A DNA stretch of 64,000 bases from Candidatus Omnitrophota bacterium (GCA_028716245.1 JAQUQW010000001.1:388322-452321), one strand, 5' to 3'; numbered from the stretch's first letter, positions 31,232-42,739 are shown. Notes: generated by a model from the sequence alone, not told the origin. Made by a program: numbers and translations.

Positions 31232-31263
31232 CAGGGGACGGTTCTCTAAAGAGAACCGTCCCC
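31232..31263 (+). terminator. REP-like hairpin copy B (CAGGGGACGGTTCTCT..AGAGAACCGTCCCC) between ppdK and the sigma factor gene
   Basis: 14-bp GC-rich stem seen in sequence, followed by AATAAAAAC; only 10 nt before the ATG at 31274, which has no SD, so more likely an attenuator or processing hairpin than a full terminator. Confidence 0.45.
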
Positions 31264-32623: not shown

Positions 32624-32697
32624 GCCCCTGTAGCTCATAAGGATAGAGCAGCAGTTTCCTAAACTGCGTGCGGCAGGTTCGATTCCTGCCAGGGGCA
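32624..32697 (+). tRNA. tRNA-Arg(CCT)
   Basis: 74-nt cloverleaf folded by eye: acceptor GCCCCTG/CAGGGGC, D-arm GCTC/GAGC, anticodon stem GCAGT/ACTGC with loop TTCCTAA (anticodon CCT), T-arm GCAGG-TTCGATT-CCTGC; CCA not encoded. Confidence 0.9.
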
Positions 32698-37547: not shown

Positions 37548-38642
37548 ATGCGCATAATTTCAATTGCTAATCAAAAAGGCGGCTGCGGCAAAACAACTAC
37601 ATCCATAAATTTAGCTGCCTCACTGGCATCCAATAGCCGCCGCGTCCTGCTTATTGATCTTGACCCGCAAGCCCATGCCACCAGCGGCTTAAACATCAAA
37701 GCGGAATTAAGTATCTACAATGTCCTTTCTAAAATCACGCATAAAAAAGCAAGGATTGACGAAATTATCCAGAACATCGGAGTTAATTTTGATATCGCCC
37801 CATCTTCGATTATTTTAAGCACGCTGGAACAGGAGTTAAGCGGTGAAATCGGAAGAGAGAGCCGCCTTTGGGATATCTTAAAAAGTTTTCAGAACAACTA
37901 CGATTACATTTTAATCGATTGCCCTCCAAACCTGGGGATCCTGACCATTAACGCCTTGCGGGCGGCAAACGAAATTATTATTCCGGTTGAAGCCAGCAGG
38001 TTCTCCTTAGAAGGGGTAAGCCAGTTAACCAGCATTATTAACCTGGTCAAAGAAAGGTTAAACCATAGCGTGGATTTCCGGATCCTGGTAACCAACTTTG
38101 ATTCCCGGCTGCAGCATTCGTTTAAAATGCTTGAGAAAATCAAGACTGACTACAAAAACAGAATGTTCTCTAACATTATCCACGTGAATGTAAAATTAAA
38201 GGAAGCCCAAAACGAAGGCCTGCATATACATGTTTACGATAAATACTGCCGGGGGGCAAAAGATTATTTCTCGCTTTCCCGTGAAATTATCACCCAGGAA
38301 AATACGCCTCCTGCGCCTGTTCCGCCAACAGAAAAAAACCTGGAAAAACGCATGCAAGATATCCTTAAGGAGAACCTGCCAAAATTAAATGAAACTGTTC
38401 TTTCGGTTAAAGCTCCTGATGCAAAAGAAGTTTATTTGGCGGGAGAATTCAACAACTGGAAGCTTGATGAACACAGCCGCATGGAGCAGAATAACGGCTG
38501 TTGGACCAAACACCTGGCCTTAAATAAGGGTAAATACCGTTACCGTTTCGTAATCGATGGAAATTGGGCCGAAGACCCGGAGAACCCATCAAGGCAAATG
38601 AATGCTTACGGCACCATGGATTCGTTGATTGAAATTAATTAG
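37548..38642 (+). CDS. ParA/MinD-family ATPase fused to a C-terminal CBM48 (AMPK-beta glycogen-binding) domain
   Basis: Deviant Walker A KGGCGKTTT and ParA body (about 250 aa), a Pro-rich linker, then CBM48 signature VYLAGEFNNWK...GKYRYRFVIDGNWAEDPENP. Confidence 0.75.
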   Translation: MRIISIANQKGGCGKTTTSINLAASLASNSRRVLLIDLDPQAHATSGLNIKAELSIYNVLSKITHKKARIDEIIQNIGVNFDIAPSSIILSTLEQELSGEIGRESRLWDILKSFQNNYDYILIDCPPNLGILTINALRAANEIIIPVEASRFSLEGVSQLTSIINLVKERLNHSVDFRILVTNFDSRLQHSFKMLEKIKTDYKNRMFSNIIHVNVKLKEAQNEGLHIHVYDKYCRGAKDYFSLSREIITQENTPPAPVPPTEKNLEKRMQDILKENLPKLNETVLSVKAPDAKEVYLAGEFNNWKLDEHSRMEQNNGCWTKHLALNKGKYRYRFVIDGNWAEDPENPSRQMNAYGTMDSLIEIN

Positions 38643-39517: not shown

Positions 39518-39844
39518 ATGCGCTTGCGAGGAAGGCCGAAAAAATACAGGATAGTCAAAGTTGACCCTAAAATCAGCTATTTTAGCCCTAGAGGCCGGCC
39601 GGGAAGGCCTGATGAAGTCCAGATAAAAATGGATGAATTTGAGGCCTTAAGGCTGGCTGATTACCAAGGATTAGGCCAAAAAGAATCAGCCAAGTCTATG
39701 CGCATATCCCAGCAAACCTTTAGCCGGATATTAAAGAAGGCGCGCAAGCAAGTAGCTAAGGGAATTACTACCGGATCAACCATAAGAATCCAGGGTGGCC
39801 AATACGTGTTGCTTCCCGGGAGCAGAAATGAGAAAATTAGCTGA
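39518..39844 (+). CDS. DUF134/UPF0251 family predicted DNA-binding protein
   Basis: Characteristic N-terminus RGRPKK...V...P....F.P and C-terminal HTH (ESAKSMRISQQTFSRILKKAR). Confidence 0.7.
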   Translation: MRLRGRPKKYRIVKVDPKISYFSPRGRPGRPDEVQIKMDEFEALRLADYQGLGQKESAKSMRISQQTFSRILKKARKQVAKGITTGSTIRIQGGQYVLLPGSRNEKIS

Positions 39845-40670
39845 CTTAACTAAGGAAAAGTTAATCGATTTATATCTAAATGAAAGAAAATCCTTGGGTG
39901 ATATAGCTAAAATCTATAGCGTTTCCCGGACAGCAATATATAAAAAACTTAACACTCATGGTATAAAACAACGCTCTAAATCAGAGGCAAGAATTGAAGC
40001 GCAGAAACAAAATAAGGTTCCACAGCAATTTTATGATATAGATGAGGATTTTTTCAGTACTTGGTCACCTGAAATGGCGTACGTTTTTGGCTTAATTCTT
40101 ACTGATGGATGTATTTCTGATAACGGAGTGATATCGCTTTGTATAAACGACAGAGAATTACTAGAAAAGGTTAAAAAAGCATTGCAATCCGAACATAAAA
40201 TAACACTGTCTAAGCATCAAGAAGGCTTGCATTATTTTCATTTTGCCAGGGAAAAACTTGTGGCGGACTTAGCAAAACTTGGTGTTTTACCCAGAAAAAG
40301 TCTTACGGTCAAATTCCCAAAGATTCCAGAAAGCTTCCTAGTTGATTTCATAAGAGGAGTTTTTGATGGCGATGGAAGTGTTTTCTTTGATAAACGCCGA
40401 ATAAACTGTCCATTAAGGTCTAAATTTGTTAGTGGCTCCTGTGATTTTATAGCCGGTTTACAACAAAAGTTAGAATCTTTGAATATGCCCGAAAGAACAA
40501 TCTATAAACAAAAAACCAAAAATGGATGGAGTTATATGTTTATATATGATCATAAAGATAGCTTAAAGTTATTTGAAATTTTATATAAAAATATCCAAAA
40601 TAAGCTATTTTTAGAACGCAAATATAGGCGGTTTTTAGAAGGTATAAAAGGCATTAAGGCAAAAACATAG
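39828..40670 (+). CDS. free-standing LAGLIDADG homing endonuclease with N-terminal HTH
   Basis: Two LAGLIDADG motifs (FGLILTDGCI and FIRGVFDGDGSV) after an HTH (SLGDIAKIYSVSRTAIYKKL); start moved to ATG 39828 (RBS GGGAGCAG); visibly AT-rich versus neighbours. Confidence 0.7.
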   Translation: MRKLADLTKEKLIDLYLNERKSLGDIAKIYSVSRTAIYKKLNTHGIKQRSKSEARIEAQKQNKVPQQFYDIDEDFFSTWSPEMAYVFGLILTDGCISDNGVISLCINDRELLEKVKKALQSEHKITLSKHQEGLHYFHFAREKLVADLAKLGVLPRKSLTVKFPKIPESFLVDFIRGVFDGDGSVFFDKRRINCPLRSKFVSGSCDFIAGLQQKLESLNMPERTIYKQKTKNGWSYMFIYDHKDSLKLFEILYKNIQNKLFLERKYRRFLEGIKGIKAKT

Positions 40671-40693
40671 GGAAATAAGCAAGGAGGTTTTTT

Positions 40694-40990
40694 ATGAATA
40701 CCCAAATAGAATTAGAATATTTAAAACAACTAACTCAAAAATACGGTAGCCGCTATATAAAGAGTTATTTTGGTTTTACTATGAGAGATTTTGCAAGAAG
40801 AATGGGCATTGCAGATAATACTTTTAGCCAAATATTAAAAGGCGTACGTAAAATGCAGGAGAAATATGAACAAGCATTCTTACAGGCTTTTAAAGATTTG
40901 CAGGTAGAGGAAAAATCAAAGGGTTTCAAAGAAACCCCAAATCAGGTACAAATGAAACAGCTCTATCAAAAAAAGAACAGCTTATTCTGA
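40694..40990 (+). CDS. small HTH-containing hypothetical protein
   Basis: 98 aa; RBS AAGGAGG; HTH-like FTMRDFARRMGIADNTFSQILKG; AT-rich. Confidence 0.4.
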   Translation: MNTQIELEYLKQLTQKYGSRYIKSYFGFTMRDFARRMGIADNTFSQILKGVRKMQEKYEQAFLQAFKDLQVEEKSKGFKETPNQVQMKQLYQKKNSLF

Positions 40991-41666
40991 ATACAGGACA
41001 TCTTTGGGAACTGGATATAATATATCTTATGTTAACTTGTCTATCTTGGCTAAGTGTACTTAACCCTATATGAGACAATAAGTTATTAAGAGATGTTTTT
41101 AACCTGTGGAAAAGGTAATTCTTGTTTACTTAAACTTACCGCTTTATTTTATTCCTAACAATTCAGGCAAAATTTATGAATCATCTTCCCTGGATTTTTT
41201 GCTTTTAATTAAAGATTTTATTTATGAACCTGGCCGGGTTAAAACAGTAATTGCGGGATAAATTGACCTCTCTCCGAAGCGGTTATTAACGCGGTCTAGA
41301 GCCTAAATAAGGCCTTCCCTGCGGATTTCTTCCTAAGTAAACTATTAAGAGATGCCCATAGCAAGTGACCCCGATTGCCCGATTTCCGGGCCGTTTAGCC
41401 AAAGATACACCACATTGCGCTGACTAAATTTTGCTGCCTGAGCCTTGTAGCCACCATTTCAGACAACAGCCTGATCCAAGCTGGATAACCTGGGGGTTTA
41501 TTTGAGCTCTAGGTAAAGTATATGGATGGCTGATTGACTTGGGTTTTCACTGGACTTACCGGAACTTTCCTCAAACTTACCACAGTTACCATAACTCTCA
41601 TTAAAAAAATGCAGTAATGTTAAAGTTTGCACAGATTCTCTCGTGGAATTATCATCTGATCCATAT

Positions 41667-42270
41667 TTAATATTTCCTGATTACGGTGATGAGCTTGCCG
41701 ATTACCTCAAACTCTTCAAAGATTGGCGCGTAATTTGGATTAGCCGCTTCTAAATGAAACTTACCGGCTTTACTGCGCAGCCTTTTTAAAGTCACCTCAT
41801 TATTGTCTAAAAGTGCGGCAACTATATCATTATTGTCGGCATGGGGGCGTTTCTTGATAATGGCAATATCGCTATCTAGTATCCCGGCATCAATCATGCT
41901 GTCGCCTTTAACCTTTAAAGCGAAAACATCATCAAAACCCAGGCGGCCAAGAAATAAATCATCAGCATCAACATAACCCTGAATTTCTTCATAAGCTAAA
42001 TCCGGCTTACCGGCCATGATCGTACCGATTATGGGAATTTTAAAAGACGCGCGCTGCGTTAACCCGATTGCCCGTGATTTATTATTCATCCGCCTCACCA
42101 AACCTTTCTGTATTAGGGCCTTTAAATAGTCCCTGACTGTCCCGGTAGATTTAAACCCCAGCTCCTCTCCTATTTCTCTAATTGTAGGAGGGAGCCTCTC
42201 CCCTATCCGTTTGCGGATAAAATTAAGCACCTTTTCCTGCTTTGGCGTCAAATACGGCTTCTTTTCCATG
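41667..42270 (-). CDS. lexA: LexA repressor (SOS regulator, S24 peptidase)
   Basis: N-terminal wHTH (LTPKQEKVLNFI...GEELG), Ala-Gly cleavage site (IMAGKPD), Ser/Lys dyad (GDSM...KRL); start set to the internal Met MEKKPYLT rather than the track start 42290. Confidence 0.85.
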
Positions 42271-42282
42271 GCTATAGATATA

Positions 42283-42298
42283 CCACACATTTGTGTGG
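42283..42298. promoter_or_regulatory. candidate LexA operator: perfect palindrome CCACACA-TT-TGTGTGG
   Basis: Seen in sequence 13 nt upstream of the lexA start; autoregulated lexA genes typically carry their own operator here. Confidence 0.45.
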
Positions 42299-42333
42299 TT
42301 TGTCAAGAAAAATTAAAGGGGCGCCTCTAAAAT

Positions 42334-42381
42334 AAAGGGGACGGTTCTATTCCTTGGTTAAAAAATAGAACCGTCCCCTTT
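42334..42381 (-). terminator. REP-like hairpin copy C (AAAGGGGACGGTTCTAT-loop-ATAGAACCGTCCCCTTT)
   Basis: 17-bp stem with A/T-rich flanks, between the zinc-ribbon sORF and lexA on the minus strand. Confidence 0.55.
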
Positions 42382-42389
42382 ATTCTTAT

Positions 42390-42554
42390 TTAACGGCTTT
42401 GCCCCTTGCTCTTTTGATAACACTCTCTGCATAATATCGGTTTGCCGCCCTCTCTGGGTTTAAAAGGCACTTCGCATTCTTTTTTGCACTCTGCGCAAAT
42501 TGCCTTGTGCATTTCCCGGGGCCCGCCAAATCCACCACCTTGTTGATACGCCAT
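42390..42554 (-). CDS. 54-aa zinc-ribbon protein (CxxC-x17-CxxC)
   Basis: Below the 60-aa track threshold; translated by hand: MAYQQGGGFGGPREMHKAICAECKKECEVPFKPREGGKPILCRECYQKSKGQSR; perfect SD AAAGGAGGAAAC before the ATG; hairpin follows. Confidence 0.55.
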   Translation of the reverse strand: MAYQQGGGFGGPREMHKAICAECKKECEVPFKPREGGKPILCRECYQKSKGQSR

Positions 42555-42620
42555 GTTTCCTCCTTTTAGTTACTTAAATAATTATATAACTTTCTAAAAT
42601 AATCTCAAGTATTTTTAGTA

Positions 42621-42653
42621 AGGGGCTGGATAATCAAATCCAGCCCCTTTTTT
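42621..42653 (+). terminator. hairpin AGGGGCTGGAT-aatcaa-ATCCAGCCCCT plus TTTTT
   Basis: 11-bp stem with T-tract on the plus strand and A-tract on the minus; sits after the msrBA/sORF unit (minus) and could act in both directions. Confidence 0.5.
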
Positions 42654-42670
42654 AACCTATACAAATAAAC

Positions 42671-42727
42671 TTATTTCTTTTTCTTCTTTGCCTTTTTCTT
42701 CGGTTTCTTGCAGCTTCCGCAGCTCAT
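42671..42727 (-). CDS. 18-aa lysine-rich sORF (MSCGSCKKPKKKAKKKKK), possible micropeptide or leader
   Basis: Consensus SD AAAGGAGGTG 5 nt upstream, placed directly after the msrBA TGA stop; hand-translated. Confidence 0.25.
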   Translation of the reverse strand: MSCGSCKKPKKKAKKKKK

Positions 42728-42739
42728 ACCCACCTCCTT

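Follow-up and report, generated by a model that had tools for sequence, protein, structure and literature searches.

Positions 40991-41666 of the Candidatus Omnitrophota chromosome analysed here lie between two convergent genes, a 98-amino-acid (aa) gene on the plus strand with its stop at 40990 and lexA on the minus strand with its stop at 41667. The whole stretch of DNA under analysis spans 64 kb and is referred to as the window. We are confident that 40991-41666 form an intergenic zone at the replication terminus with three components: dif, the XerC/XerD chromosome dimer-resolution site, at 41010-41037; a conserved flank from 41038 to ~41173; and a dead Y-family polymerase gene at 41222-41650. 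Most of the stretch is ordinary, comprising the polymerase pseudogene and the recognisable dif.

A scan of both strands for open reading frames (ORFs) detected none that reaches 60 aa and overlaps 40991-41666. The longest ones that overlap it lie at 40926-41078 (minus, 50 aa), 41106-41261 (plus, 51 aa) and 41498-41632 (minus, 44 aa). An earlier note, made from the sequence alone, had described the stretch as free of such ORFs and its neighbours as convergent, and both descriptions hold. Its remark that gaps elsewhere in the window stay under 150 bp is roughly correct, with exceptions such as 42291-42739, which is likewise poor in ORFs. No DNA similarity to phage was found for the stretch.

The locus was compared at 174 loci in total, 53 of them genome loci around a LexA match and 121 metagenome loci from a pattern scan, of which 87 bear the element; flank analyses of the larger set used 120 distinct sequences. 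The LexA of the window is 81-94% identical in amino acids to proteins from Candidatus Omnitrophota metagenome-assembled genomes. Likewise, the DNA at 41016-41650 shows 70-85% identity in ~45 genome loci, on par with the lexA coding sequence (blastn). Gene order is conserved across genome and metagenome loci: a ParA-like gene, a 108-aa gene, a 136-aa gene and a DUF134 gene precede dif and its flank, and beyond these, on the opposite strand, come the polymerase, a small ORF and lexA. At 37548-38642 the window encodes a ParA/MinD-type ATPase fused to a C-terminal glycogen-binding module (AMPK1_CBM/CBM_48), and this fusion gene is syntenic near the terminus in most loci.

dif and the islands on its XerC side

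The 28-bp dif sequence (41010-41037, plus strand) is composed of the XerC arm ACTGGATATAA (41010-41020), the central region TATATC (41021-41026) and the XerD arm TTATGTTAACT (41027-41037). It shows the 11-6-11 layout of dif, with inner ATAA/TTAT and the two arms in imperfect dyad symmetry. Relatives share the consensus arms ACTTCCTATAA-N6-TTATGTTAACT, in which the arms are invariant and the 6-nt centre is variable. The clade consensus ACTTCCTATAATATATCTTATGTTAACT agrees with the B. subtilis dif ACTTCCTAGAATATATATTATGTAAACT at 25 of 28 positions, whereas none of 200 shuffles matched, and with the E. coli dif GGTGCGCATAATGTATATTATGTTAAAT at 20 of 28 positions, including 10 of the 11 in the XerD arm. 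The window copy itself agrees with the B. subtilis site at 22 of 28 positions (reference sequences from Kono et al. 2011, PMC3025954). In 113 of the 174 loci, ACTTCCTAKAA-N6-TTATGTWAACT is found exactly once per locus, and the exact XerD arm has a single match in the 64-kb window. Conservation that runs on past the polymerase stop extends for ~200 nt and ends sharply at window position 41016 in most loci.

Genes lie essentially all on the plus strand over 1-40990 and on the minus strand over 41667-64000. At window scale, GC skew is positive up to ~41 kb and negative beyond, AT skew flips likewise, and cumulative GC skew reaches its maximum at ~40-42 kb. Kono et al. (PMC3025954) report that dif is located at the GC-skew shift point. 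Convergent orientation together with a sign change of GC skew is the signature of a replication terminus. Furthermore, ftsK is reported to be conserved across the PVC superphylum, Omnitrophota included (PMC12283558). The sequence match and the position of dif are direct observations, from which we infer binding and recombination by Xer: XerC/XerD-type recombinases would resolve chromosome dimers at 41010-41037. A literature search found no paper describing dif in Omnitrophota. The site marks the replication terminus of these uncultivated genomes, and a dif consensus is now provided for the phylum.

Sites of the same type are found outside these chromosomes. TATAA-N6-TTATGTTAACT occurs in at least 120 IMG/VR viral contigs (L175-L294); the six bases upstream are strongly biased to nnTTCC, with C at position -2 in 83 of 120, and nnTTCC-TATAA-N6-TTATGTTAACT is over-represented in such contigs. 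These sites suggest many Xer-exploiting elements or prophage borders, and their frequency in viral contigs is what exploitation of such Xer sites by mobile elements would lead one to expect.

In the window, an island (39828-40990) separates the DUF134 gene from the XerC arm. It carries, on the plus strand, a helix-turn-helix (HTH) and LAGLIDADG endonuclease gene at 39828-40670 (LAGLIDADG_3; phrog_4645 'endonuclease', E=3e-48), whose real start is at 39828, and the 98-aa HTH gene at 40694-40990. Most relatives have no island, and in them the DUF134 gene is separated from the XerC arm by only ~100-130 nt. Both island genes are present in the window and in L123, and the 98-aa gene alone in L024 and L035 and likewise, up to the contig end, in L003. 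The endonuclease gene is found in L065, L073 and L100, with a different 61-aa HTH gene next to dif in L065, and also in L136 and L082. All island alleles have the outer XerC arm changed, to ACTGGATATAA, AGTGGATATAA, ATTGCCTATAA or AGTGCCTATAA.

In the window and in L123, L065 and L100, the far (left) border of the island was found to bear no further dif-like site. The island contains no recombinase gene, and no Xer activation factor domain was detected in it. The islands are inserted at the XerC side of dif. They may have been integrated by Xer and have since lost the second site by decay, or they may be insertions made by a homing endonuclease that targets the neighbourhood of dif. Together, these recurrent endonuclease/HTH islands at the XerC arm offer a small and tractable example of how mobile DNA exploits dif.

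A dead polymerase gene downstream of lexA

Downstream of lexA, relatives carry on the same strand an ORF of ~100 aa and then a 367-aa polymerase ORF, which is intact in 41 genome loci. In relatives the polymerase is the last gene of an operon formed by lexA, the small ORF and the polymerase, and the window holds a dead copy of it at 41222-41650. An intact orthologue (L013:7108-8211) matches Pfam IMS (5.8e-41) and IMS_C (3.9e-12), and the catalytic motifs DMDAFFAS and SIDE are present in the orthologues. Matches of the orthologue to the NCBIfam DNA polymerase IV models fall below the cut-off (196 vs 256-399 bits).

The remnant of this Y-family (DinB/Pol IV-like) polymerase gene on the minus strand was delimited by tblastn and a four-way DNA alignment. 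The translated search matched the window to the L013 orthologue with E=3e-18, the match being broken into pieces that lie in three frames and contain in-frame stops. The window fragment ERICANFNITA corresponds to orthologue residues 123-133, and the run equivalent to residues ~200-367 reads PKSISHPYTLPRAQINPQVIQ / AWIRLLSEMVATRLRQQNLVSA / LWLNGPEIG / RAIGVTC / EEIRREGLI*ALDRVNNRFGERSIYPAITVLTR. The pieces retained are codons ~120-134 (41650-41608), 207-276 (41592-41383) and 314-367 with the stop (41382-41222). A first deletion of ~850 bp runs from just past the lexA stop to polymerase codon ~120 and took the small ORF with it, two further deletions removed ~215 bp and ~105 bp of the polymerase, and the copy also shows small indels, with 9 nt inserted at its stop.

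Lacking codons 1 to ~120 and two internal pieces, the window copy does not carry IMS and IMS_C in a single frame, as a Y-family polymerase does. It is classed as a pseudogene, not a gene, because the catalytic part is missing and what is left is spread over three frames with stops. With the N-terminal catalytic third and two internal pieces lost, and with frameshifts and stops in the rest, no polymerase can be made: the copy is dead. The ~1.2 kb of deletions make it very unlikely that the frameshifts are assembly errors.

GC content is 44-48% across 41200-41600, compared with 30-35% across 40900-41200. Coding sequence in the window has a GC content of ~43%, so that 41200-41600 lies at an ordinary coding level with no unusual enrichment. 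Folding energy over 41200-41540 is no better than that of shuffles (z = -0.06 and +1.0 on the two strands). The earlier note had read two segments here as GC-rich structured RNA and had pointed to protein-like fragments on the minus strand. The quoted strings and peptides are indeed in the sequence, and both strings fall within polymerase codons (...NPQVIQAWIRLLSEMVATRLRQQNL..., ...WLNGPEIG...RAIGVTC) at ordinary coding GC. Raised GC and protein-like fragments are seen because they are leftovers of polymerase coding sequence. A decayed gene, one of the explanations the note had put forward, accounts for about two thirds of the stretch; the gene is the Y-family polymerase of the lexA operon, and not an insertion sequence or integrase remnant tied to the LAGLIDADG block, with which it has no connection.

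The polymerase has decayed in other genomes as well. L027 has a similar truncation with different deletion junctions, and its decay was therefore independent of that in the window. In L016 and L051 only polymerase residues 307-367 are left, and in L003 almost nothing. These truncations, together with that of the window, show that the polymerase has been lost repeatedly and independently. L023 is also among the genomes in which the LexA-linked polymerase is truncated or lost. The small ORF between lexA and the polymerase, which has a weak DUF6504 match, was lost alongside the polymerase in the window and in L027. The comparison thus makes visible the repeated independent loss of a LexA-linked translesion polymerase.

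The lexA gene itself (41667-42290, minus strand) encodes the Pfam domains LexA_DNA_bind and Peptidase_S24, and is the first gene of the operon in relatives. Its true start is probably the ATG at 42269 (MEKKPY...), not 42290. The lexA promoter (42269-42310) reads TTGACA-AACCACACAAATGTGTGGTATA, and a palindrome, CCACAC-N4-GTGTGG, lies at 42283-42298 between the -35 and -10 boxes; it is present once per locus in 43 loci. This palindrome is a candidate LexA operator of this Omnitrophota clade. SOS regulation of the dif flank was considered and rejected, since CCACAC-N4-GTGTGG was found at the lexA promoter only.

A palindromic repeat resembling repetitive extragenic palindromic (REP) elements, GGGGACGGTTCT...AGAACCGTCCCC, has five matches in the window against 0.13 expected. 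Sites of this repeat include 31234-31263 and 42337-42378 in the window, L024:6627-6744, nine copies in L104, and L031:4380-4391. In L024 the repeat forms a tandem stack between lexA and the small ORF, and in L031 one copy lies in-frame within the polymerase linker.

The conserved flank and the alternatives

A conserved flank of fixed length, to which no strand is assigned, occupies 41038 to ~41173 on the XerD side of dif. It contains an invariant DnaA-box-like motif, TGTGGAAAA at 41105-41113 (the reverse of TTTTCCACA), and a conserved block, TTTACTTAAACTTACCGC, at 41125-41142. Between the flank and the polymerase stop, at 41174-41206 on the plus strand, a variable stretch is followed by a conserved T-run, GGATTTTTTGC (41192-41202). 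The distance from the XerD arm to the T-run is exactly 179 nt, without indels, in 44 of 46 genome loci. Mean pairwise identity by column is 100% in the XerD arm, 60% in columns 11-66, 81% in 67-115, 47% in 134-164 and 84% in 165-179; for reference, third codon positions of lexA reach 63%, and the DNA to the left of the XerC arm 42%.

Columns 1 to ~146 stay beside dif in divergent metagenomic lineages that lack the polymerase and lexA, where the right-hand neighbours are a radical-SAM gene or a toxin-antitoxin pair. The flank is kept where those genes are replaced, and therefore goes with dif and the DUF134 gene, not with the polymerase. The T-run part is missing in the divergent lineages that have no polymerase next to dif and keep the rest of the flank. 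In viral contigs, the dif-like sites have no Omnitrophota flank beside them. The flank itself contains no second dif-like site; an XerC-like similarity in the variable stretch is restricted to some loci and is ascribed to chance for that reason.

Neither a coding nor a folded-RNA signal was detected in the flank. A small ORF was rejected, as its 34-codon frame (MLTCLSWLSV...) is broken by stops in 14 of 44 loci, and no frame stays open for more than 20 codons throughout the 120 distinct sequences. RNAalifold returned 0 pairs and no consensus structure for the flank. A candidate structure derived with RIBOSUM had 79.8% of cells paired compared with 77.5% in shuffles; real double changes were seen solely at the base of the stem before the T-run, where covariation is weak. 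Mutual information over the 120 flank sequences revealed no stacked Watson-Crick covariation. The hairpin preceding the T-run does not exceed shuffles in stability (-5.45 vs -4.96 +/- 2.7 kcal/mol), and a local palindrome around CTGTGGA is not maintained among relatives.

The DnaA box is a 9-mer bound by DnaA, with the consensus TTATNCACA and the relaxed form TTWTNCACA. TGTGGAWAA at 41105-41113 is the reverse complement of the DnaA box TTWTCCACA. In 117 of the 120 sequences the motif is within one mismatch of TTATCCACA at the same column, and 110 fit TTWTNCACA exactly.

In some divergent lineages the other conserved motif of the flank, TTTACTTAAACTTACCGC, takes the form of a direct repeat of 10 nt, GACTTACTTG. 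Its 17-nt form TTTACTTAAACTTACCG (window 41125-41141) is identical at 15 of 17 positions, in inverted orientation, to the codons for YLNLP in the polymerase linker. The linker (e.g. L013:7701-7760) holds two to three copies of the complementary CCGGTAAGTYT (PGKF/PGKS), and a further copy lies at the 3' end of lexA; the window sites compared for this repeat are 41554-41581 and 41757-41766. Four of the 13 GGTAAGT heptamers of the window are on the minus strand within 41140-41765, and the 17-nt block persists where the polymerase is not adjacent. The match between block and linker could possibly reflect a shared protein-binding motif, long-range pairing within the lexA-polymerase transcript, or an old inverted duplication. 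ACTTACC as a genome-wide REP-like repeat was tried and rejected: its enrichment in the window is modest (17 vs 4.7 expected), and much of it comes from Gly-Lys-Phe codons.

The flank is lineage-specific and under purifying selection, and neither coding capacity nor RNA folding could be detected in it. Most likely, its action is that of DNA with protein-binding sites, the DnaA-box-like motif among them, and these sites would be held at a fixed distance from the crossover point. The ~135 bp kept at exact length beside the XerD arm in 120 distinct sequences are the part of the locus that could matter more.

Several points weigh against the assignment of dif and against a DNA-level role of the flank. 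A crude motif search identified no xerC, xerD or other tyrosine recombinase gene in the 64-kb window. Relative to the clade consensus, the XerC arm of the window carries three changes in its outer part (TCC to GGA), and the single copy and the terminus position hold at the scale of the window and contigs. TATAAT lies inside the dif core, so that on sequence alone the same bases allow a promoter reading. As to the flank, a single DnaA-box-like 9-mer is expected a few times by chance in 64 kb, and its invariance alone argues for function. The DNA-level role is argued mainly from missing RNA and coding signals, and an unstructured base-pairing RNA or an element of a 3' untranslated region (UTR) would look alike.

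Of four alternatives, the leading idea of the earlier note, a structured non-coding RNA gene at ~41220-41600, is hardly credible. GC there is locally above that of the neighbouring spacer and the DNA is strongly conserved across relatives, but the conserved DNA aligns codon for codon with the intact polymerase ORF of 41 related genome loci, and folding energy shows no excess on either strand. The Rfam scan that the note had proposed was run with Rfam 15 and gave no covariance-model match in 40991-41666, whether at the gathering score or at E<=10; within 40600-42000, E<=10 admits two chance-level matches, both outside the stretch, and the sole pass at the gathering score in the whole window is a tRNA at 32624-32697. 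That the 28-mer is merely a sigma-70 promoter or a chance look-alike, and no recombination site, is very improbable. The consensus -10 hexamer within it and the failure of the motif search to find an xer gene in the window speak for that idea. Against it stands the agreement at 25 of 28 positions with an experimentally defined dif, for which chance expectation is essentially zero (0 of 200 shuffles). Moreover, conservation spans 11 nt downstream of the '-10 plus 6' and 5 nt upstream, matching the dif arms, the 28-mer sits at the switch of skew and orientation, and the same arm types recur in viral contigs. We also consider it quite unlikely that the stretch, or its left end, is a LAGLIDADG homing site whose altered XerC arm protects island alleles from cleavage. 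A full-length, free-standing HTH+LAGLIDADG gene (phrog_4645, E=3e-48) does separate DUF134 from the XerC arm in several lineages (window, L123, L065, L073, L100, L136 and L082), the outer arm is changed in every island allele, and the far border is without the second dif-like site expected of a classical Xer-integrated element. However, the L024 and L035 islands, with the small HTH gene and no endonuclease, share the same altered arm, the replacement arms (AGTGCCTATAA, ATTGCCTATAA) are still XerC-like, which better fits Xer-mediated integration, and a cleavage site is not definable from sequence alone. The earlier note, in suggesting a homing target, came close insofar as a site-specific recombination target, dif, directly adjoins the endonuclease/HTH island; dif itself and its conserved flank were not anticipated there.

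The remaining alternative concerns the flank and is compatible with dif: 41028 to ~41206, from the dif core to the T-run, would be a plus-strand small RNA (sRNA) gene or 3'UTR element acting by base-pairing, for example with GGUAAGU repeats in the mRNA of lexA and the polymerase. In its favour, the invariant TATGTTAACTT is preceded, 7 nt upstream, by a perfect TATAAT, the variable stretch with its covarying stem base leads into the conserved T-run GGATTTTTTGC, and U-G-compatible changes favour the plus strand at columns 3-8/128-133. Furthermore, UUAAACUUACCG has 12 nt of complementarity to CGGUAAGUUUGA of the polymerase linker (two to three repeats), and there is a precedent in Rcd, a small RNA encoded inside the plasmid Xer site cer (PMC5357621). 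On the other side, dif fully accounts for TATAAT, for the variable 6 nt and for the invariant 11-mer, and a promoter followed by a 179-nt sRNA and a terminator was dropped as the leading model once the invariant TATAAT-N6-TATGTTAACT proved to be dif. The hairpin, RNAalifold and covariation results given above likewise offer no support for a folded RNA, the T-run part is absent from divergent lineages that keep the rest of the flank, and island-bearing alleles have no conserved -35 box. We regard an sRNA or 3'UTR element as unlikely and favour a flank that acts as DNA. As for what such a flank might do, we suggest only tentatively, as a possibility short of an even chance, that it is, with its invariant DnaA-box-like motif and its ACTTAC-repeat block, a lineage-specific terminus control region, built of protein sites or an Rcd-like RNA, that regulates Xer at dif or couples it to replication or SOS. 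Nothing of that kind is described for chromosomal dif sites.

Comparison with known systems

The Omnitrophota site resembles the dif of B. subtilis and other XerC/XerD (CodV/RipX) systems in its 28-bp length, its 11-6-11 layout with the inner ATAA/TTAT dyad and its single copy per locus. Likewise, it lies at the GC-skew switch between convergent genes, and its centre varies between species. It differs in its host phylum, Omnitrophota, in the three outer changes of the window XerC arm beside an inserted island, and in the ~135-bp fixed-length flank conserved on the XerD side, which is no described feature of chromosomal dif.

The islands resemble integrative mobile elements exploiting Xer (IMEX) such as CTX-phi, TLC-phi and GGI: they are small, integrase-less and placed exactly at dif, the adjoining arm is swapped for an XerC-arm-like sequence, and viral contigs commonly carry dif-like sites of this type. 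In contrast to IMEX, they have no second dif-like site at the other border, and they carry a LAGLIDADG endonuclease, a small HTH protein or both, with no Xer activation factor domain detected.

The polymerase orthologues are akin to the DinB/Pol IV genes of LexA-controlled operons, as they possess IMS, IMS_C, DMDAFFAS and SIDE and follow lexA, with a palindromic, operator-like site in the promoter ahead of them. They depart from these genes in scoring under the NCBIfam Pol IV cut-offs (196 vs 256-399 bits) and in having a variable, repeat-containing linker (NPGKF/PGKS), and the window copy departs further as a pseudogene without the catalytic domain.

For the flank, the closest parallel is found in plasmids, in the accessory sequences that belong to the Xer sites cer of ColE1 and psi of pSC101 (PMC5357621). 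These lie on the XerC side, bind PepA together with ArgR or ArcA, and serve FtsK-independent plasmid resolution. Both they and the Omnitrophota flank are non-coding DNA of ~150-180 bp that abuts an Xer core at fixed spacing. The Omnitrophota flank, however, is on the XerD side of a chromosomal site, in a phylum in which ftsK is present, and no ARG box or ArcA box was located in it, whereas cer and psi have about 180 bp at the XerC arm, so that the resemblance would be one of layout only. If the flank does control dimer resolution or the function of the terminus, it would be a chromosomal counterpart of the plasmid accessory sequences, and one that is directly testable.

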